Source: a virus. From it: a DNA stretch of 64,000 nt. The DNA lies in the IMG/VR virus record IMGVR_UViG_3300037572_000374, positions 1 through 64,000 of that record; one strand, written 5' to 3'. The notes below the pieces were generated by a model. The model saw only the letters and a program-made list of their open reading frames with translations. It did not search any database and was not told where the DNA came from. Below, in pieces: positions 42,923 through 61,988 of the stretch (the stretch's first letter is position 1; each line of letters opens with the position of its first letter). Position numbers and translations under genes: made by a program.

Positions 42923-43810
42923 ATGCAATCACCTTATAAGAAAGTAATAGTCTATGATTTAGAGACTGGTGGATTAAAACACGATCATAATGCAGTAACA
43001 GAAATTGCTATGGTTGTAATTGATTTAGAAACTTTAAAGATAGAAGATAAGTTTTCATGTATCATAAAGCCAACCTTTGACTTAGAGAACCTAGAAGTAG
43101 ATTCTACAAAAGAAGCTAGAGCAATTTTCAAGTTAGTAGCTGAGAAGGATCCAGAAACAAAAGTAGCTTCTATAATGTATGGAGGGAAGAGGTTAACAAT
43201 TAAGGATCTTGAGTCAGTAGAAGCTGGTATACAAGAGATGGAGATGTTAATTGAAAGAAAGGGTACTCAGTTTGATTCAAAGCAAGTAGCTTTGTTAGAG
43301 AGTAGTGAGAAATATGGAAACATAGCTAAGTTATATTTTGATAAAACTTATAATCCACAAGCAATGAGTGTAACTCATATGTCAAAGGAGATGTTAATTA
43401 ATGAAGGAATTGAACAAGATGAAGCAATTGATCTTATTACAGCTTTCATTGAGAAGTATACAATAGGAAATGCTAAGCCAATACTTGCAGGACACAATAT
43501 AAAGAAGTTTGACAATCCATTCTTAGAGAAATTGTTAAGAAGAAAGGGTCATGACATTTATAAGTTGACAAATGACACTCAAATGATTGATACATTAGAG
43601 TGGGCTAGATTAAGATGGTTTGAATTACCAAGTTATTCTTTAGGAGTTTGTGCTAATGCATCAGGATTAACATTAAAAGAAGCTCATCGTGCAGAAAGTG
43701 ACACAATGGCCAATGCAGAATTCTTAATTGTAATGCTAAAAGGATTGAGATCTAATGGATCTAACTCTGAAGAAAAGTACGAACGTAGGAAGTTTAAATT
43801 TAATTTTTGA
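42923..43810 (+). CDS. dnaQ: DEDDh 3'-5' exonuclease (Pol III epsilon-like) with an internal insertion
   Basis: YDLETGG, GHNIKKFD, AHRAESD. Confidence 0.88.
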   Translation: MQSPYKKVIVYDLETGGLKHDHNAVTEIAMVVIDLETLKIEDKFSCIIKPTFDLENLEVDSTKEARAIFKLVAEKDPETKVASIMYGGKRLTIKDLESVEAGIQEMEMLIERKGTQFDSKQVALLESSEKYGNIAKLYFDKTYNPQAMSVTHMSKEMLINEGIEQDEAIDLITAFIEKYTIGNAKPILAGHNIKKFDNPFLEKLLRRKGHDIYKLTNDTQMIDTLEWARLRWFELPSYSLGVCANASGLTLKEAHRAESDTMANAEFLIVMLKGLRSNGSNSEEKYERRKFKFNF

Positions 43811-49961: not shown

Positions 49962-51515
49962 ATGAATAAGGAACAAAATAAATTATACAATTACTGTAAA
50001 GCAATGCTTCTAGATTTTACGATCGAAGGAGAATTCTTGCTTATAGATGGTAATAAGTATATGATCTTAAATGATGAAATTAATCTTATAGATGAAGATG
50101 GAGATTTTGAACCTGATTCAGTTTTTAAACTAACTGACGATGTAGATGGATTTGTATATGAATTTGGAGGAAGATTCTATACACAAAATAAAGAACAAGA
50201 TTTAACTTTAACTGAGTTAAATTATATTGGTAAAGCAAAAGAGAAATTACCAACAAAATCTTTTCTAGGAATAAGATCAGGATATGAACTTATGAATGGA
50301 ATGGGATTATATAAGTCATGGATATCAAAAGCAAAGTTCTTAGGAGCTGAGGCTTTAGGAATCTGTGAGAAGAATACTCTTGGTGGAGTGCTAAACTTTC
50401 AGAACGAATGTAAGAATGCAAACATCAAGTCAATAATTGGAATGACTATTTCTGTTGAAGGATCCAAAACATATGATGTAAAATTATATGCAAAGAACTT
50501 TCAAGGATGGTTAAACTTATTGAAGTTCAATACTATAATTAATGTAGATTTGAATTTCAGTGTTCCAATTTCAACATTAGAAAATAACAAAGAAGGATTA
50601 TTCATTGTTGCAGATCCTAAAAGTATGGATTATCACAATGTTAATGAATTAGATGTAGACTTTTATCAATTAGATACTGTAAACTTTTTGAATGCAGATA
50701 GAGATGAGAAGTACATCAATAATTTAGAGCTATTTATTACGAGCGATATTGAACCAATTAGTATTACAGATGCATTTTATTTAGAATCACAAGACTTTCA
50801 GACTAGAGAATCTTTGTGGACTATCAATAAAGCATTTGACGATAAGACTGACAATCAATATTTCAAGTCTAAGTCACAATATGCTGGTGAATTATTAACT
50901 ATGTTTGATTCACAAGATAAGAGTTGGATTGAATTGTATAAAAGAGCAATAAGTAATGAGGTAGTGTTGGTTGAGAATTGTAACTTTAGTTATGATACAG
51001 ATACAAGACACTTGCCAAGATATATAATGACTGAAGAAGAGTCTGAAAACTTTGATACAAATGAACTATTGTTCATGAATATAGTTAAGAAAGGATTTAA
51101 AGATAGAGAAGTTAAGGATGCAGAAAAATATGTAGCAAGATTAAAAAAAGAGATTGCTGTATTGAAGATGGGTGATGTAATAGATTACTTTTTAAGTCTT
51201 CATGATATTATTAGATATGCAAAAAGCAAAAAGATGTTAACTGGAATTGGTCGAGGATCAGCTGGTGGAAGTTTAGTTGCTTATTTGATGGGAATTATTC
51301 AAGTGGATCCTTTAAGATTCGATTTATTATTTGAAAGATTTTTGAATAGTGGAAGGATGGGTAAATTTGAAGAAAGACCTTCTTACATTATTGAAGCAGA
51401 TGGTGAAACTTTAGAATTTGAAGAGGGATCCTTAGTAAGAATAAAAAGAGATAGTAAAGAAACAGTTGTCTTTGTACATGAAGTTGTAGAAGGTGATGAA
51501 ATAATAAGATACTAA
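49962..51515 (+). CDS. dnaE: DNA polymerase III alpha, N-terminal part (PHP domain and start of palm)
   Basis: GRGSAGGSLVAYLMGI, LLFERFLN. Confidence 0.9.
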   Translation: MNKEQNKLYNYCKAMLLDFTIEGEFLLIDGNKYMILNDEINLIDEDGDFEPDSVFKLTDDVDGFVYEFGGRFYTQNKEQDLTLTELNYIGKAKEKLPTKSFLGIRSGYELMNGMGLYKSWISKAKFLGAEALGICEKNTLGGVLNFQNECKNANIKSIIGMTISVEGSKTYDVKLYAKNFQGWLNLLKFNTIINVDLNFSVPISTLENNKEGLFIVADPKSMDYHNVNELDVDFYQLDTVNFLNADRDEKYINNLELFITSDIEPISITDAFYLESQDFQTRESLWTINKAFDDKTDNQYFKSKSQYAGELLTMFDSQDKSWIELYKRAISNEVVLVENCNFSYDTDTRHLPRYIMTEEESENFDTNELLFMNIVKKGFKDREVKDAEKYVARLKKEIAVLKMGDVIDYFLSLHDIIRYAKSKKMLTGIGRGSAGGSLVAYLMGIIQVDPLRFDLLFERFLNSGRMGKFEERPSYIIEADGETLEFEEGSLVRIKRDSKETVVFVHEVVEGDEIIRY

Positions 51516-51518
51516 AAT

Positions 51519-53540
51519 ATGAAAGTAACTAAGATAACACAAAACACCTCTATGAAGTTGGTAGATGGAACGCTTCCAGATATTGATACAGATTTTGCTG
51601 GTAGAAATAGAGCTGAGATTAAACAATACATGGAAGATAGATTTGGTCAAGAACAAGTGTGTTCAGTAGGATCTTATTCTACTATGAAATTGAAAGGCTT
51701 GGTAAAAGATTTTGCAAGAATATCTTCAGTTGACTTTAAAGAAGCTAATCTAATTACTTCAATAATTGATGCAGGAGATTTAACTATGTTAGATTTAATT
51801 AAAAGAGCTAGTAGTGAGCCAAGATTAAAGTCTTTCATTCAAAGGAACAGTGACATATTCTATATGTTGCCTACTTTGTTAGATCAGCCTAAGACACAAT
51901 CAATTCATCCATGTGCTGTAATTATATTCCCAAGTGTAATGAGTGCATCAGAATGGGTGCCAACAAGGTTACAACAAGGATTAGTAGTTTCAGAATGGGG
52001 AGGTAATGAAATGGATGATGCTGGATTCTTAAAGGATGATATTTTAGGTATTAAGCAATTAGATAAGTTTACAGATATCTTAGATCTCATAAAGATTAAT
52101 GATAAAGAAGTACCTAACATATATGATCTACCACACGATCCAGAAGTATTCAGATACTTTGGTAATGGATGGAATGGAGATGTGTTTCAATTAGGATCCA
52201 CTGGACTTACAGAATATAGTAAAGCACTAAAGCCTCAAAGAATTGAAGATTTAATTGCTGCAACTGCTGTATATAGACCTGGACCAATGGAGAATCACTA
52301 TCATGAGATTTATGTAAAGTGTAAGAATGAAGGTAGAGAGCCTAAATACTTATGGGGTACAGAAGAGATTGCAAAGGATACATTTGGACTTTTGATATAT
52401 CAGGAACAAGTAATGCAAGTGTTCCAATTAGTTGGAGGACTGAGTATGAAAGAAGCTGATGATGTTAGGAGAGCAATGGGTAAAAAGAAGTTATCTGCAT
52501 TGTTAAAGTGGAAAGAGAAAGTAGCTCAGGGATTCTTAGATAAAGGAGCAACACAAGCTCAGTTTGATGAAGTGTGGGTAGCAGTAATGGAGTTTGCAAA
52601 GTATGGATTCAATAAGAGTCACTCTGCTGCATATGCTATGACTGGTTATGCTTCTCAATGGTTAAAAGTTCATTATCCAATTGAATATTGGACAGTGGCT
52701 TTAGATTATGCAAATGAAGAAGATACTTTAAAGTATTTATCTGAAATTATGCAAGCCAAAGCAATTAGTGTGAAGGCTCCAGATATTAATCACTCAGCAA
52801 TGAGTATGATATCTGATCAAGAATCAAGTACAATCTTTTGGGGATTAGGATCCATCAAAGGTATTGGAGAAGATACAGCTAATCAAATTATTCAAGATAG
52901 AATTGAAAAAGGAGATTATAAGTCTTTTGCAGATTTTGTATTCAGACATAACTTCAAAGGTAGTAAAGTAAAGAAACAAACATATGAAGCACTAATTGCA
53001 TCAGGATGTTTTGATGATTTATACAATCTTGAAGGTAGAGAAGAAAGAAGACATCTGTTAATAAAGAGATATAGAAAGTATAAAAAAGTAAAGATAGCCA
53101 ATCCTAAAAGAGATGTTTATACAATAGGACAGACAGATCAAAGATGGTGGTGGTCATTACAGCAAAAGAGATTAACTGGTTTAGCATTCTTAGACTATAA
53201 AGGAATAGCAGAAGACTATGGAGTAGAATCTCAATTTGCTACATTAAGTGAAGTTAGTGGAAAGCAAGAGAAATCTATCTTTAGAAGTTTTGGTGGATAC
53301 ATAGTAGAAGCTAAAGTTGCAAGATCAGCTAAAGGTGAATATTGTAGAATAACAATAGAACATAATTACAAGTTATTTAAGATTATGGTTTGGTCAGAAG
53401 AGTTTGAAAACTTTAAGACTCAACTAAAAGGATCTGAAAAGAATCTGATAATATTTGAGGGTGAATTAAGATATGATGCCAAGTGGGCTAGAGCAAATCA
53501 GTTTACAATCAAAGAAAATTCAAAATTAATTGTTCTCTAG
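51519..53540 (+). CDS. dnaE: DNA polymerase III alpha, C-terminal part (catalytic palm, fingers, HhH, OB)
   Basis: PDIDTDF, KDDILG, YRPGPM, YQEQVM, YGFNKSHSAAY. Confidence 0.93.
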   Translation: MKVTKITQNTSMKLVDGTLPDIDTDFAGRNRAEIKQYMEDRFGQEQVCSVGSYSTMKLKGLVKDFARISSVDFKEANLITSIIDAGDLTMLDLIKRASSEPRLKSFIQRNSDIFYMLPTLLDQPKTQSIHPCAVIIFPSVMSASEWVPTRLQQGLVVSEWGGNEMDDAGFLKDDILGIKQLDKFTDILDLIKINDKEVPNIYDLPHDPEVFRYFGNGWNGDVFQLGSTGLTEYSKALKPQRIEDLIAATAVYRPGPMENHYHEIYVKCKNEGREPKYLWGTEEIAKDTFGLLIYQEQVMQVFQLVGGLSMKEADDVRRAMGKKKLSALLKWKEKVAQGFLDKGATQAQFDEVWVAVMEFAKYGFNKSHSAAYAMTGYASQWLKVHYPIEYWTVALDYANEEDTLKYLSEIMQAKAISVKAPDINHSAMSMISDQESSTIFWGLGSIKGIGEDTANQIIQDRIEKGDYKSFADFVFRHNFKGSKVKKQTYEALIASGCFDDLYNLEGREERRHLLIKRYRKYKKVKIANPKRDVYTIGQTDQRWWWSLQQKRLTGLAFLDYKGIAEDYGVESQFATLSEVSGKQEKSIFRSFGGYIVEAKVARSAKGEYCRITIEHNYKLFKIMVWSEEFENFKTQLKGSEKNLIIFEGELRYDAKWARANQFTIKENSKLIVL

Positions 53541-55498: not shown

Positions 55499-56524
55499 AT
55501 GAAAGATAAATTAGCAATAATATTTAATGATGCACATCTCAAGACTGGGAATGAGCAAGATGTAATACACTCTGTAAAGCATATGTTAAAGTATGCCAAG
55601 AAAGAAGGTATTGCTAATTTGATATTTGCTGGAGATTTATTTGATAGTAGATCGTTTCAAAGACAAAGTGTTTTACATGCTTTTGATGAAATATTAGATC
55701 TAATAAATAAAGCTGGATGCACTTTGTATATATTTCCAGGAAACCACGATAAGACAGTTTATGCTTCTTATGATAGTTTCTTAGATGTATACAGACATTA
55801 TCCAAGTGTAGTTTTCAACAGAGAATTATCTGTTATCGAATTAGATGGAGTTACAATTACATTGTTGCCATTCTTTTCAGATGATATGTTGATTCCAATG
55901 TTGGAAGAAGCAAAGCCTACAGATGTGTTGATTAGCCATTTTGAAATGGCAGGATCTACTCACTTAGGAAAAGTTTCTGTAAAAAGTACAATTAATAAAA
56001 AACTTTTGAGTAAGTTTACCAAAACTTATTTAGGACATTATCACAATCATCATGAAATAAGTAAAGACATCGTTCATCTACCTTCATTAAGACAAAGTAA
56101 CTTTGGTGAAGACGAGAACAAAGGATTTGCAGTATTGAATAAAGATTTGTCGTATGAACTAATTAAGGGTGATTTTAAGAGCTTTAAGAAAGTAACTATT
56201 GATATTAATAAAACTACAGCAAAGCAATTAAAAGAATTGATTACAACTTATGAAAATAGCTCAAACACTATTCGTTTTGAATTTGTAGGAGATGAAAGTA
56301 AGTTAAAGGCTCTGGATAAGAGTTTGTTTAATGGATCCGGAATTGATGTGAAGATTAAGTATGATGTTAAGTATGACTATAAAGATGATCAACTAGCATT
56401 ACCAACTGTGATTGAACATTATGGAGAGGAGCAAGTTAAAGATGCTTTTAAGAGTTTTTGTAATGAAAAGGGATATGAATATCAAGAAGGTATTGTATTA
56501 TTAAATGAATATTTAAAGAGATAA
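55499..56524 (+). CDS. SbcD/Mre11-like nuclease
   Basis: DAH, GDLFD, GNHD, SH and GHYH metallophosphoesterase motifs. Confidence 0.9.
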   Translation: MKDKLAIIFNDAHLKTGNEQDVIHSVKHMLKYAKKEGIANLIFAGDLFDSRSFQRQSVLHAFDEILDLINKAGCTLYIFPGNHDKTVYASYDSFLDVYRHYPSVVFNRELSVIELDGVTITLLPFFSDDMLIPMLEEAKPTDVLISHFEMAGSTHLGKVSVKSTINKKLLSKFTKTYLGHYHNHHEISKDIVHLPSLRQSNFGEDENKGFAVLNKDLSYELIKGDFKSFKKVTIDINKTTAKQLKELITTYENSSNTIRFEFVGDESKLKALDKSLFNGSGIDVKIKYDVKYDYKDDQLALPTVIEHYGEEQVKDAFKSFCNEKGYEYQEGIVLLNEYLKR

Positions 56525-56528
56525 ATAT

Positions 56529-57491
56529 ATGAGCAAAGGAATAAAAAATGCACTAGCTGCCTTAGAGAAAAGATTTGGAGAATCAGTTGTAATGAAAATG
56601 AATGAAGCAAACACTTCAATAGAAACATTTTCATCTGGAAGACCAAGTTTAGATTCTAAGTTGGGTGGTGGATATGGAGTAGGTAAGATCGTTGAGATTT
56701 ATGCTGAATCGGGATGTGGAAAGACTGGACTAGCTTTAGAAGCAATTGCAAGTATGCAATCAAGTGGAGGAATTTGTGCAATCATTGATGCTGAGCATGC
56801 TTTGAATACAGAGTACTGTGAACAAATTGGTGTTGATATTGATGCACTTTATATTTCACAACCTACTTATGGAGAGCAAGCATTTGAAGCTATTAGAGCA
56901 TTAGTTAACACTGGTGAAGTAAATTTGATAGTAATAGATTCAGTTGCAGCTATGATTCCAAAAGCAGAATTAGAAGGTGAAAGTGGAGAAGCTAAAATTG
57001 CATTGCAGGCTAGAATGATGTCTCAAGGTATGAAGTTAATTACTGGAGCAGCATCTGATAACAAATGTACGATCATATTCATTAATCAATTGAGAAAAAC
57101 TATTGCAATGTATGGACCAAGTGAAACCACAGCTGGTGGTAAGGCTTTAAAATTCTATGCAACACAAAGGTTAGAGATTAAGAATAGAGGACAGATCAAA
57201 CAAGGAGATGAAACTATTGGATTCAAACAACAAATCAAAATAGTTAAGAATAAAGTTGCAGCACCATTTCAAGTGTATGCAGAAGATATCATATATGGAA
57301 AAGGAGTAGACAATACACAAGGTTTTGTTGATGCTTTAGTATATGAAGAAATACTTTTAAAGGCAGGAGCTTGGTATAAGTATGATGGAACTAATATTGC
57401 AAAAGGGATGAAAAATCTTAGAGCAGCATTAGAAGATAATCCTGATTTGCAGGATGAACTACAAAGCAAGTTAGATGCTTTAAGAAAATAA
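56529..57491 (+). CDS. recA: RecA recombinase
   Basis: ESGCGKT, IDAEHAL, DSVAAMIPKAE, ARMMSQ, GGKALKFYA, KNKVAAPF. Confidence 0.96.
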   Translation: MSKGIKNALAALEKRFGESVVMKMNEANTSIETFSSGRPSLDSKLGGGYGVGKIVEIYAESGCGKTGLALEAIASMQSSGGICAIIDAEHALNTEYCEQIGVDIDALYISQPTYGEQAFEAIRALVNTGEVNLIVIDSVAAMIPKAELEGESGEAKIALQARMMSQGMKLITGAASDNKCTIIFINQLRKTIAMYGPSETTAGGKALKFYATQRLEIKNRGQIKQGDETIGFKQQIKIVKNKVAAPFQVYAEDIIYGKGVDNTQGFVDALVYEEILLKAGAWYKYDGTNIAKGMKNLRAALEDNPDLQDELQSKLDALRK

Positions 57492-57544
57492 GTATAAAGA
57501 TCGGACCCAGACGAACTGGGGATTAAAATTAAAATAGAGTAAAA

Positions 57545-57763
57545 ATGAAAAATTTAGTATTAGTATTAGTATTAGTGTTTACATTCGGATTAACATCATG
57601 TGAACAAGACGTAATTGAATCTCCACAAAGTGAGTGTTCACAAATCAATGGATATTACGAAAACCTAACTGCAGGATTAACTCCTCAAGAGGCTTCGTTA
57701 TATATTCAAGAATGGCAAGATGCTTTGAATGCAGCAGGATGTCCAAGTTTGGATACAATATAA
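57545..57763 (+). CDS. Small lipoprotein
   Basis: Lipobox LTS-C. Confidence 0.7.
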   Translation: MKNLVLVLVLVFTFGLTSCEQDVIESPQSECSQINGYYENLTAGLTPQEASLYIQEWQDALNAAGCPSLDTI

Positions 57764-57840
57764 TTAAAAAGAATTGGGTGAGTCTTAGAGCTTAGGCATT
57801 TGATTGCTACACCCAACTAAGAGTACCAAAAAATATACAT

Positions 57841-59772
57841 ATGAGATTAGATAGAGCAGTAGTAAAAAACTTTTTAACTTATGAGAATCTGGATTATAAC
57901 TTTTCCAGAAATCCTCTATTAGTACAAGGTAGAAATTTAACAGAAGAAGATCAGGAATCAAACGGATCCGGAAAGTCTGGTTTGTTTACAGCAATTGAGT
58001 TTTGTATTACAGCTAGTAATTCTAGAGATGTAAGAGATAACGAATTAGTTATGTTTGGAGAGAAACAAGCAAATGCTGAATTGTATGCCTCATGTGATAT
58101 TAGAAAAGAACAATTACATATAGCTTGGCTAATTAAAGTAAAAGGATCCAATGTACTAACACTTAAAAAGAAATCGTACGATGGAGAATGGGAAGAGATA
58201 AGTTTCTCAAATGTAAATGATGGTAAGAAGTATATCATGAATTGGTTTGATATTGAAAAAGAAGACCTATTCAACTATTACATTATTAACAAGAGTAGAT
58301 TTAAAACTTTCTTTAAAGCTAGTAATAAGGAAAAAGTAGAGTTGATAAACAGATTTAGTGATGCATCGATTATTGATGGACTAGATAAAGTTGACAATTC
58401 TGAGTTACAGTTAGAATATGATACTATCAAATCTAATATAGATAAAGTAGTTGGAAAGGTAGAATTCATTACTCAACAACTAACTCAAGAGGAAGAAGTA
58501 ATTGATGAGAGTCAATTAGTAAAAGACATTCAAGATAAGATCTCACAAGTAAATGACGATAAGTTAGATGTACAAGATGAGATTAAAGAGTTTGACCAAA
58601 AGAAGTCAGATGATGCTAAATTGTTAAAAGATGCTGAAGGTAAATTAGCAGCAATAGACGTTAAGGTATCTATGGCTCAAAAGGCATTTGATAATTACAA
58701 AACACAATTAATAAGTACAACAGATCAAGAAGATCAAATTGACACATTGTCTACAAAGCAATTGAAGGTAGATAAGTTACTCAATGAATTAGATATAGAA
58801 TTATCTGGATCCATTGAATGTCCTAAATGTTCTTATGAATTTGTATTAGATTCTAAACATGGATCCATTGAACAAGCTAAACAAAAACAGAGTCAAGCGT
58901 GTGAGATAAGAAAAACTATTTCAAGTAAGATTGACCAGTTAGATGTTGAGATTTCAAATATACAATCTTCTAATAAAGAACAAGAAGATAAGAGACAGAA
59001 GTTAAGAGATGATCTAAACCAAGCTTCAACTCAATCTCAATCTTCATCAAGACAAGTACTAAGATATGAAAAACTTATTGCTGAGCACGATAAAGATATA
59101 GCAGACTGTAATAATGATCTAAAACAATTTGATCTAGATATCAAGCAATTGAATATAGATATTAAGAATGTAGGATCCACAAAGCCAAACAATAAAGAAA
59201 ACTTTGAAGAGCAGTTATCAAAACTCTCAACAGAGCAGAAGGATCTTGAAGAGGAGTTATCTACAAAAGGAGATGAGATCTATAAGAGGAATCAATGGGC
59301 CAATAACTTTAAACAGTTTAGAGCTCATCTTGCAAACCAATCATTGGAAGCAATAGAATTTCACATGAATAGATATTTAGATGGAATGGATTCAGATTTG
59401 AAAGTTAAGATGGAAGGATTTAAACTTCTTGCAAATGGAACATTCAAAGATGAGATTACAGCTAAAATTATTAGAACAGTTGAAAGATCGTTCAGTAGCT
59501 TCTCAGGAGGTGAACAAGGAAGACTTTTATTTGCAGCAATACTTGCAAATAGACATATGTTAAATAGTACTCACAAATATGGTGGTTTAGATTTCTTATC
59601 TATTGACGAAGTATTTGAAGGAGTAGATTCTTTAGGATTGAAAAAATTAGTAAAGAGTGCTAAACAATTAGATATTTCTGTTATGATTATTACTCACGTT
59701 ACAGATGAAGAAGTAAGTGATGATATATTATTAATTGAAAAAATAAATGGAATAAGTTATGTCAAAAAATAA
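57841..59772 (+). CDS. SbcC/Rad50-like SMC ATPase
   Basis: NGSGKS, CPKC zinc hook, FSGGE, IDEVFEGVD, ITH. Confidence 0.93.
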   Translation: MRLDRAVVKNFLTYENLDYNFSRNPLLVQGRNLTEEDQESNGSGKSGLFTAIEFCITASNSRDVRDNELVMFGEKQANAELYASCDIRKEQLHIAWLIKVKGSNVLTLKKKSYDGEWEEISFSNVNDGKKYIMNWFDIEKEDLFNYYIINKSRFKTFFKASNKEKVELINRFSDASIIDGLDKVDNSELQLEYDTIKSNIDKVVGKVEFITQQLTQEEEVIDESQLVKDIQDKISQVNDDKLDVQDEIKEFDQKKSDDAKLLKDAEGKLAAIDVKVSMAQKAFDNYKTQLISTTDQEDQIDTLSTKQLKVDKLLNELDIELSGSIECPKCSYEFVLDSKHGSIEQAKQKQSQACEIRKTISSKIDQLDVEISNIQSSNKEQEDKRQKLRDDLNQASTQSQSSSRQVLRYEKLIAEHDKDIADCNNDLKQFDLDIKQLNIDIKNVGSTKPNNKENFEEQLSKLSTEQKDLEEELSTKGDEIYKRNQWANNFKQFRAHLANQSLEAIEFHMNRYLDGMDSDLKVKMEGFKLLANGTFKDEITAKIIRTVERSFSSFSGGEQGRLLFAAILANRHMLNSTHKYGGLDFLSIDEVFEGVDSLGLKKLVKSAKQLDISVMIITHVTDEEVSDDILLIEKINGISYVKK

Positions 59773-60307
59773 AACTATATACATAGGAATAGATCCTGGA
59801 AAGCAAGGTTTCATAGCCATAATAAAGGACGAAGAGAACATCTTTTTCCCTATGCCATATGAAAGACTAGAAGGCAAGTCAGTATTCTGTGAGAAGTGTT
59901 TAAAACCTCTTGTAGAAGAGATTAAAGACTTGTGTGAAGGATATGAGATTAAAGTAGGTATTGAGCAAGTAGGTGGTAGAGGAGGTTGGAGTGCAACAAA
60001 TAACTTCAACTTTGGATACACAGCTGGATTGCAAAAACTTATGATGATTATGATTGATGCTGACATATTAATGGTTAGACCTGCAAAATGGCAATCAGTA
60101 ATGAGAAAGGGCTACGACAACATAAAGAAAGCTAGCTCTACTGGAAAGACTATGGTTAATGATTCAAAAGCAATAGCAGAGTTTATTGCACTAACAGAAT
60201 GGCCAGAGATAGACTTTAGGAAAAGTACAAGAGCTAGAAAGAATGATGACAATAAAATTGATGCATTTTTAATTGCTCAATATTTAAAAAGAATAGATGG
60301 AAAATAG
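59759..60307 (+). CDS. RuvC-like Holliday junction resolvase
   Basis: IGIDPGKQG, IEQV, RPAKWQ, DAFLIA. Confidence 0.85.
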   Translation: MSKNKTIYIGIDPGKQGFIAIIKDEENIFFPMPYERLEGKSVFCEKCLKPLVEEIKDLCEGYEIKVGIEQVGGRGGWSATNNFNFGYTAGLQKLMMIMIDADILMVRPAKWQSVMRKGYDNIKKASSTGKTMVNDSKAIAEFIALTEWPEIDFRKSTRARKNDDNKIDAFLIAQYLKRIDGK

Positions 60308-61988
60308 AACATTCTATATCGACAAGGTCAATAAGACTATTAACTTAACTTTTGATTTCGATCACAGTATAGTTAATAGGATTAAGGCTTGTGATTATAA
60401 TACTAGATTCAATCCAGAATTTAAACAATGGATCATTCCAATTACTGAATATTCTAAATCAAGAGCTTTGCAATTGATTAGAGATTTTGACTTTAAACAA
60501 GTTGAACAGATAATAGAAGAAGATGTAGTAGTTGATTACAAACAGACTGAAGTTGATTATGCTTATTTAAGAGGACTATGTGACTCAAGAGGATTTACAT
60601 ATGAACCAAGAGATTATCAAATTGAAGCATTAGGTTATGCATTAGAGAAAGGAAACATCATTAATGGAGATGATGTAGGACTTGGTAAGACATTTGAAAG
60701 TATAATGTATGCTGAGACTACAAATTCATTTCCATGTTTAGTTGTTGTTCCTGCTTCTGTAAAATACAATTGGCAAGAAAAGTGGTTAGAGATTACTGGT
60801 AACAAAAGAAGTGTTGCAGTAATAGAATCTAAAGAAACTAAGAAAAGAGTAAATGATTGGAATGCAGATGTAGTAGTTATTAATTATGACATCATTGGTA
60901 AGAAGCAAGGAAAAGGAGCTACAGTTAAGTTTGCTGAATTAGCCGATACTGAATGGTCGATGATTATATTTGATGAAGCACATTTCTTAAAAGAGAAGAC
61001 TTCTCAAAGAGCAAGGGCTGCTAAGAAGATTACACAAGGAGATATGAAGATCCAAATGTTAACTGGAACTGCTGTAATGAGTAGACCAGTTGAGCTTTGG
61101 AATTTATTAGTTTTAGCTAAACAAGAAAAGAAGATAGCAAAAGACTGGATGCACTTCATAACTAGATACTGTGGTGGATATAGAGGTAAATTTGGATGGG
61201 TTACAGATGGAGCTACAAATACATTAGAACTGAATAGAAAGCTCAGAGAGGTGTGTTATATACGTAGAGAGAAGAGAGATGTACTCTCTGAATTACCTGA
61301 TGTAACAAAACAAGTTATTCAAATGCCAATTACAAATCTTGCAAAGATCAAAAGAGCTTTGACAGACTTCATAGCTTTTGTTAAAGAGACTAAAGGAGAA
61401 GAGAGTGCTGAGAAAGCTCAAGAGGCTGAACACTTAGTTGCTTTAGGAACTATGAGAAAATTAGCTATTGAAGGAAAGCTAAAAGCTGTTGATTTATATC
61501 TTAGGGATTGGAAACAAGCTGAGAAAGGTAAATTATTAATCTTTGGAATTCATAGAGAAGGACTTGATTATCTATCTGAAAAATTCAAAAGCAAATTAAT
61601 TGCTGGTGGAATGAGCAGTAAGGTAAAACAAGAAACAGTTAAGGAGTGGGTAGAGAATGATAATATGTTTCTATTTGCAAATATGCAATCAGCAGGAACT
61701 GGAGTAGATGGATTACAACATGCATGTTCAAATATGCTAATTCTAGAACTACCTTGGAGACCGAGTGATTTAACTCAAGCAATTGGAAGATTGGATAGGA
61801 GTGGACAGAAAGAACCAGTTACAGTTTCTTTTATGTTAAATGATGATACAATAGATAAAGAGATGTTTGAAATGATCTCAGATAAGGAGCTAGTAACTGA
61901 AGCAGTAAACAAAGGTGTTGATATTCGAAAGAATAAGTCAGGATTAAAGTCTGTGATGAGAAAGTTGTTAAAAAGGGGAAAAAAATAA
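60297..61988 (+). CDS. SNF2-family helicase
   Basis: DDVGLGKT, DEAH, LTGT, QAIGRLDRSGQ. Confidence 0.92.
   Translation: MENRTFYIDKVNKTINLTFDFDHSIVNRIKACDYNTRFNPEFKQWIIPITEYSKSRALQLIRDFDFKQVEQIIEEDVVVDYKQTEVDYAYLRGLCDSRGFTYEPRDYQIEALGYALEKGNIINGDDVGLGKTFESIMYAETTNSFPCLVVVPASVKYNWQEKWLEITGNKRSVAVIESKETKKRVNDWNADVVVINYDIIGKKQGKGATVKFAELADTEWSMIIFDEAHFLKEKTSQRARAAKKITQGDMKIQMLTGTAVMSRPVELWNLLVLAKQEKKIAKDWMHFITRYCGGYRGKFGWVTDGATNTLELNRKLREVCYIRREKRDVLSELPDVTKQVIQMPITNLAKIKRALTDFIAFVKETKGEESAEKAQEAEHLVALGTMRKLAIEGKLKAVDLYLRDWKQAEKGKLLIFGIHREGLDYLSEKFKSKLIAGGMSSKVKQETVKEWVENDNMFLFANMQSAGTGVDGLQHACSNMLILELPWRPSDLTQAIGRLDRSGQKEPVTVSFMLNDDTIDKEMFEMISDKELVTEAVNKGVDIRKNKSGLKSVMRKLLKRGKK

Follow-up and report, generated by a model that had tools for sequence, protein, structure and literature searches.

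Several systems are known in which one enzyme is encoded in two pieces. In 'fractured genes', adjacent gene halves carry the parts of a split intein and a free-standing homing endonuclease gene lies between them; three DnaE loci with catalytically complete split inteins have been reported in this arrangement (Dassa et al. 2009, PMC2677866). The split DnaE genes of cyanobacteria lie at distant loci, and their inteins trans-splice to give one chain (PMC2677866). NrdA of Aeromonas phage Aeh1 is split by the insertion of mobE and assembled via terminal tails, which were reportedly needed for higher-order assembly and not for formation of the heterodimer (Crona et al. 2011, PMC3045599). Here we describe a stretch of 64,000 nucleotides (positions 1 to 64,000 of IMG/VR virus record IMGVR_UViG_3300037572_000374; this whole stretch is called the window below), in which a homologue of DnaE, the alpha subunit of DNA polymerase III (Pol III), is encoded by two open reading frames (ORFs) whose facing ends very probably derive from a split intein and have lost the ability to splice.

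Like the fractured genes, the window has a replication gene in two co-oriented adjacent ORFs, broken at an intein split point and at a catalytic motif; GIY-YIG genes occupy the gap in some of its relatives, and complete examples exist at the very same DnaE site. It differs from them in lacking all five splicing residues reported there, in the length of its Hint portion (69 residues against about 130–150), in the absence of a free-standing homing endonuclease gene from its junction, where the gap is 3 nt, and in that its product would stay as two chains. Its two-piece DnaE, with ends corresponding to two Hint halves, resembles the cyanobacterial split DnaE (Ssp/Npu DnaE), whose intein has a different insertion site. 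The closest functional precedent is Aeh1 NrdA, an essential phage enzyme which a mobile endonuclease has fragmented at the active site and which, reportedly, works as a non-covalent assembly only with the extra C- and N-terminal tails at its break. The tails of the window group, for their part, are conserved and occur in split forms only; experimental proof of activity exists for NrdA alone. NrdA concerns one phage, whereas the window type forms a large, old and diverse clade. The hedgehog autoprocessing domain and the bacterial intein-like (BIL) domains also have the Hint fold without full splicing, and both are among our structural matches; they keep catalytic residues and cleave or ligate, whereas the window remnant keeps none and is split over two polypeptides. 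We know of no intein origin or Hint fold for the Aeh1 NrdA tails. Our search found no published description of a non-splicing split-intein remnant in DnaE, which is weak evidence of novelty as the search was incomplete on subscription journals.

A DnaE-type polymerase divided in its palm domain

The two ORFs lie in the same frame at 49962–51515 and 51519–53540. The features of the locus are as follows.

49962–51515, plus strand: ORF-N, 517 amino acids (aa), the N piece of DnaE, with the PHP domain and the first part of the palm, then the putative intein-derived tail and TAA
51330–51356, plus strand: FERFLNSGR, the last residues of the N-extein, conserved in split and fused DnaEs
51357–51512, plus strand: tail of 52 aa (MGKFEE...EGDEIIRY), probably left over from a split-intein N fragment (its C-terminal half), as judged from homology, AlphaFold2 strands and conservation
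51513–51518, plus strand: TAA stop and AAT spacer, equivalent to the natural split point of the presumed ancestral intein
51519–53540, plus strand: ORF-C, 673 aa, the C piece of DnaE, with the remaining palm, the fingers, HHH_6 and the C-terminal domain
51519–51569, plus strand: head of 17 aa (MKVTKITQNTSMKLVDG), the probable remnant of a split-intein C fragment, first strand
51570–51596, plus strand: start of the C-extein, T-L-PDIDTDF, with the former +1 Thr/Ser position and then the catalytic aspartate motif of the palm

ORF-N matched the Pfam models PHP (E 4e-11) and DNA_pol3_alpha (PF07733) at positions 5–98 (E 6e-27), and ORF-C matched positions 100–260 of DNA_pol3_alpha, followed by the finger and HHH_6 domains. 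Both pieces scored above the Pfam cut-off, and jointly they span positions 5–260 of PF07733, with PDIDTDF present. Since this one Pfam domain is divided between ORF-N and ORF-C, they represent a single DnaE-type polymerase cut within the palm domain. Models of family A, B or C polymerases gave no other match in the genome, whose record has 78,505 bp and was judged 98% complete.

The break falls two residues ahead of the strand that bears the catalytic PDxD aspartates, inside an insertion of 69 residues. The spacer between FERFLN.GR and PDIDTDF has five residues in fused relatives; in the window it has 52, the stop, and then 17 + 2 (MKVTKITQNTSMKLVDG-TL). The junction reads ...GAA ATA ATA AGA TAC TAA AAT ATG AAA GTA..., with TAC TAA AAT ATG at 51510–51521. 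The ATG of ORF-C, at 51519, is 3 nt past the TAA (51513–51515) and in frame with ORF-N. An earlier note on this DNA had read the locus as a DnaE split just before the catalytic PDID, with about 50 extra residues and two same-frame ORFs, and the sequence and the Pfam searches agree with it. Reassignment of the stop codon was considered and rejected, because every other ORF in the window is intact when read with table 11.

The window phage is marine and kin to the Cellulophaga phage phiST group. Its nearest public genomes are the Cellulophaga phages phiST, phi19:2 and phi13:1, with about 73% nucleotide identity. All three have two coding sequences annotated as 'DNA polymerase III alpha subunit' and broken at the same residue as in the window, with the junction TAA-A-ATG in the +1 frame. 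Two independent assemblies, made from two further marine metagenome samples, retain the stop at 51513–51515: their contigs have TAA AAT ATG free of indels, and one represents a diverged strain, with 14 differences in 551 nt.

The same-residue break recurs in dozens of metagenomic relatives, so that the conservation which the earlier note had proposed as a check is found. The C piece and the tail each served as query for IMG/VR loci, and the counts given here are of loci whose junction our scripts could class. About 41 loci have an insertion at the break point, and all of these are split within the insertion. About 50 are fused and have only the 5-residue spacer, with one exception of 21 residues. 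The exception (L084, 2587–2670) is a fused DnaE with 21 residues between FERFLN and PDIDVDF (against 12–14 counted from the F of FERF); a small scar could account for it, as could a loop insertion of unrelated origin. The junctions of the split relatives occur in all three relative frames, with overlaps of 4–65 nt, gaps of 1–6 nt, or 0.2–3 kb containing genes. In the protein collection, 57 clusters of N pieces of about 515 aa all end in ...GD-x-I-x-x-[YF], and 72 clusters of C pieces of about 673 aa all start with M-K/I-[IV]-x-x-I...KLVDG. No fused protein carrying the tail was found in a search of longer proteins.

The varied frames, the genes in the gap, the protein clusters and the independent assemblies therefore exclude readthrough, sequencing error and pseudogene decay as general explanations, and we hold the split to be genuine with near certainty.

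Variants were also seen among these pieces. One cluster of N pieces (P0052, 647 aa) is about 130 residues longer and has an extra precomputed Pfam match to PF14623, which we take to be a Hint-type family and which would suggest a further intein in that piece. In two loci (L097, 1104–1181, and L098) the catalytic motif of the C piece is PDIDQDL in place of PDIDTDF, with both aspartates retained.

Probable intein ancestry and conservation of the junction peptides

The earlier note had proposed that the junction peptides come from a degenerate intein. Our analysis supports such an origin because the predicted fold is Hint-like, complete split inteins occur at the identical site, and the tail has profile homology to them. 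A search for the DNA pattern encoding H-N-[S/T/C]-x-P-D-x-D-x-D-F returned 29 viral loci, 28 of which are C pieces of phage DnaE. These 28 start with a complete split-intein C fragment ending in ...HN, followed by S-x-PDxDxDF, at a site identical to that of the window. Where the locus reached far enough upstream, the N piece had FERF... followed directly by C-L..., a block B with ..N-H.., and a stop about 100 residues on; other genes, amounting to 0.4–3 kb, lie between the halves. The active N fragments of this site matched the Pfam families Intein_splicing (E 1.3e-6) and Hint (E 1.6e-5).

Profile comparison by hhalign aligned the tails of the window group to these active N-inteins with Prob 96.9 and E 1.3e-10. 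Tail residues 7–52 correspond to the final 47 residues (columns 48–94) of the active N-inteins, and the two are co-terminal. As a control, the tails were compared with genuine inteins of the same proteins at another site, between GFNK and SH, and the match fell to Prob 3.9; the active same-site inteins matched these GFNK-SH inteins with Prob 72.7. The similarity of the tails is therefore specific to the site, as expected for direct descent. The heads share their first strand, M-K-I-K-x-I, with the active C-inteins. Pfam searches with the window tail, the head and the read-through junction found no Hint family and gave only chance-level matches (CDC48_N, Hemocyanin_C).

Some phage DnaEs have longer insertions at the same site, with a tail of about 85 and a head of about 34 residues. 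The long tails aligned to the active same-site N-inteins with E 8.6e-9 and matched Pfam Intein_splicing weakly (E 0.012 and 0.052), and their profile had the PI-PkoII intein as its best match in the PDB (E 0.0065, block B region). These intermediate forms of about 120 residues have block-F-like heads. For one with its insert in frame (L029), the top 50 Foldseek matches of the read-through model were all inteins, down to E 3.5e-4.

Genuine inteins elsewhere in these polymerases were also noted. At the GFNK-SH motif of the C piece there are apparently intact contiguous inteins (C1 ... C/S-N, then S) in L036 (4123–4947), L044 (4099–4929), L038 (4075–4917) and L039 (4123–4530). Three, of 275–281 aa, are Cys/His-rich and HNH-like in the middle; the fourth is a mini-intein of 136 aa. 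The polymerases of L036, L039 and L044 contain the dead split remnant as well, and L038 is a fused DnaE. An N piece in L095 (733–1101) has the C-terminal end of a genuine intein (...GAIVHN, then SAGGS) in its GRGSAGGS motif, upstream of a normal dead-intein tail.

The fold of the junction was predicted with AlphaFold2 from the 89 residues read through the TAA, using a block alignment of 23 tails and 18 heads; alignments of the junction only, with fused DnaEs left out, were used for placing the heads. The core of the model has a predicted local distance difference test (pLDDT) score of 85–89; the tail contributes four strands and the head a single long one (model residues 64–77), which coincides in superposition with the opening strand of the C-intein in solved inteins. 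The 14 best Foldseek matches in the PDB were all Hint domains. A VIA-align comparison with 48,161 PDB representatives, made without Foldseek, placed Hint domains (inteins or hedgehog) at ranks 1–26, with Z from 8.3 to 3.8, and the first non-Hint fold had Z 3.8. The best superposition was 1.5 Å over 54 residues on the DnaB intein of M. smegmatis, followed by 1.8 Å over 55 residues on MchDnaB-1 and 2.3 Å over 57 residues on Npu DnaE (its residues 53–115). The superpositions cover intein residues from about 45 to 119, across the natural split point, and the pairing of tail and head strands is read from these ranges only. In this model the junction peptides are predicted to form the central part of the Hint fold only; the first 35–45 and last 20–25 or so residues, about 60 in all, are not covered by the insert.

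The residues of splicing are gone from the window. Block A, including Cys1 and the first strands (about 45 residues), is deleted, with MGKFEERP in its place. Block B has EEGSL where the hhalign alignment shows SPNHL/TGNHI in active inteins, with neither the Thr nor the His of the block; its E488-G489 are invariant. Also deleted are the last part of block F and the His-Asn pair of block G: the head ends in ...KLVDG before T-L-PDID, whereas active relatives end in ...[LTV]HN before S-x-PDxD, and the residue preceding the former +1 Thr is Gly. The +1 residue itself is kept (Thr18 of ORF-C, 97% Thr and otherwise Ser) and matches the +1 Ser of active relatives; it is conserved in fused DnaEs too, and is thus an extein feature. 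The earlier note had seen neither a Cys/Ser1 nor a His-Asn at the junction, which holds for the window. With block A, the block B His and the block G His-Asn lost, canonical protein splicing is not expected, and to judge from the residues present, any splicing by the window remnant is very unlikely. Taken with its ancestry, we consider the insert highly likely to be intein-derived and unable to splice.

Both peptides are conserved about as well as the PHP and C-terminal domains of the polymerase. Mean pairwise identity is 0.586 for the tail and 0.589 for the PHP region (56 N pieces), and 0.626 for the head and 0.665 for the C-terminal domain (69 C pieces). Tail positions M466, G467, E488, G489, R496 and D512 are invariant, as are head positions K13, L14 and G17, and P20–F26 of ORF-C are nearly so. 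The ratio of nonsynonymous to synonymous substitution rates (dN/dS, Nei-Gojobori) comes to about 0.34 (tail) and 0.36 (head); these values are rough, as synonymous sites are near saturation. The tail and the head are under purifying selection. In a quick extein tree with a midpoint root, from which we claim no order of gains and losses, the dead-intein forms occur across a well-supported clade, interleaved with fused forms, and well-supported branches require at least three changes of state.

A proposed non-covalent dock and its alternatives

The explanation that we favour is a two-chain polymerase in which an eroded split-intein remnant serves as a non-covalent dock, and we give it a probability of roughly 0.75. 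A naturally split intein would once have occupied this DnaE site in a fractured-gene arrangement and then have eroded. Translation of ORF-N and ORF-C is probably coupled, given that only 3 nt separate the stop from the start. The tail and the head would pair as split-intein halves do, rebuilding the central Hint beta-sheet across the former split point, and the rebuilt sheet would keep the palm's N-terminal portion up against the strand with the catalytic aspartates. No peptide bond would be formed, and the chains would stay unligated. Selection for less bulk beside the active site may lie behind the shrinkage from about 120 to 69 residues. The earlier note had suggested a two-chain polymerase held by an intein-derived clasp; the two chains and the intein origin are supported, and we infer the clasp function from the purifying selection and from the known association behaviour of split inteins. 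Docking as the role of the remnant seems probable to us on these grounds.

Several observations weigh against this explanation. The association through the remnant is deduced from the fold predicted for an artificial chain that reads through the stop and joins tail and head by a linker of two residues. The model of the intermediate insert (L029) was confident in only one of five AlphaFold2 models. The heads, which are too short, gave no significant hhalign match to active C-inteins (Prob 32), and the tail motif v-R-d-G-..-v-..-e-L-.-G-D also resembles the P-type ATPase A-domain in sequence. By analogy with Aeh1 NrdA, the role of the remnant could likewise differ from simple docking.

The earlier note had offered stop readthrough and sequencing error as alternatives, both of which are excluded by the other frames, the overlaps and the genes between the halves in relatives. 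Reading through or recoding the TAA, to give a single polymerase of 1192 residues, would suit a window in which the ORFs share one frame with only TAA AAT between them, but the closest cultured relatives have TAA-A-ATG in the +1 frame, and others have +2 frames, overlaps of 4–65 nt, or 0.2–3 kb with complete genes, which makes it exceedingly improbable. A lone in-frame stop in an essential gene is also the classic signature of a sequencing or assembly error. The junction is nevertheless kept in independent contigs, including the strain with 14 differences in 551 nt, the 57 + 72 protein clusters come from many studies and have the same ends, and decay to a pseudogene is opposed by purifying selection on both pieces and the junction peptides of the genome's only polymerase; we regard error or decay as practically negligible. 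Continued ligation of the chains by non-canonical trans-splicing could find support in the retained +1 Thr/Ser, in a long-form relative (L030) that retains a Cys at position 1, and in the inteins with Ala1 (classes 2 and 3), in which step 1 can be bypassed. Against this, the window has no block A region, block B His, block F end or terminal His-Asn, the Gly before the +1 Thr allows no succinimide, and about 60 residues of the fold are missing, so that we see very little chance of it.

The insertion might also be a small beta domain (SH3-, KOW- or ATPase-A-domain-like) that converged on a Hint-like shape, since a profile search of the PDB also matched P-type ATPase A-domains (E 0.02) and Z values of 6–8 can come from common beta arrangements. 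This is improbable in a high degree: the insertion point is that of complete split inteins and the break lies at the same point of the fold, hhalign gave E 1.3e-10 to same-site inteins and not to those of another site, the intermediates of about 120 residues have block-F-like heads, and Hint folds take the top 26 ranks, the first other fold having Z 3.8. A different matter is whether the remnant, though derived from an intein, leaves the joining of the chains to the palm interface and has another role (higher-order assembly, partner binding or regulation) or is tolerated baggage. The palm of Pol III alpha has extensive native contacts within the domain, inside which the break lies, and the Aeh1 NrdA tails are reportedly dispensable for the heterodimer but required both for activity and for assembly of the tetramer (PMC3045599). 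The purifying selection that acts on both peptides speaks against baggage, and in all surveyed loci the insertion was found only with the split, which links the insertion to the break. The halves of split inteins are, moreover, known high-affinity partners. We thus consider this reading unlikely, though worth keeping in mind, and prefer the non-covalent dock.

Genes around the polymerase and significance

The surroundings of the polymerase in the window form a replication and recombination module (42923–43810, 55499–59772, 56529–57491 and 60297–61988), with PHROGs matches to a separate DnaQ-like exonuclease subunit, SbcD- and SbcC-like proteins, a UvsX-like recombinase and a helicase. No recognisable ligase gene follows the polymerase directly, in contrast to phiST. 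Metatranscriptome run X24 covered only part of ORF-C, at about 6% divergence, and cannot show transcription of the window phage.

In the relatives, a variety of genes was found between the DnaE halves. GIY-YIG homing endonuclease genes lie there in three loci (L089, L092 and L096), one of them also with NUMOD3, and other loci have several small ORFs of unknown function in the gap. A high-GC (guanine-cytosine) phage has a gene of 429 aa for a clamp-loader-like, DnaX-like AAA+ protein (L053, 1661–2950; Pfam DNA_pol3_delta2, E 5e-14), and its DnaE halves carry their own divergent tail and head. A gene for an N6/N4 DNA methyltransferase directly follows, and overlaps the end of, a long-tailed N piece in L099 (1169–1924) and L100 (1169–1933); in both the C piece lies beyond the fetched DNA. 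Between active split-intein halves there are genes of 320–366 aa in L119 (933–1892, minus strand), L113 (3665–4762, minus strand), L109 (2912–3973) and L122 (1686–2756, minus strand). Their products have weak nuclease-like matches only (Phage_endo_I, MTES_1575, DUF7487), and these genes may be members of the Vsr-like family of homing endonucleases that has been described in fractured genes.

As a tentative and rather doubtful extension, the remnant might be a domesticated, minimal (52 + 17 residues) Hint-derived heterodimerisation module that is essential to the polymerase, and the tolerated break might have become a safe landing site for mobile and accessory genes, such as the GIY-YIG endonucleases, the methylase, the clamp-loader-like gene and the small ORFs, whose gain and loss at this point would leave the enzyme unharmed.

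Inteins are usually regarded as either splicing or dying. The locus described here suggests a third fate, in which all the chemistry is lost while the ability to join two polypeptides is kept and selected. It would also indicate that a foreign domain can stay permanently beside the catalytic aspartates of a C-family replicase with the enzyme still working. The natural series from the complete split intein through the dead form of about 120 residues to that of 69 residues offers material for studying the decay of splicing, and may show which minimal part of the Hint fold is sufficient for the association of fragments. Such small natural peptide pairs might become non-covalent tags for protein assembly. 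For annotators, 'broken' dnaE genes of this kind should be neither merged nor discarded.

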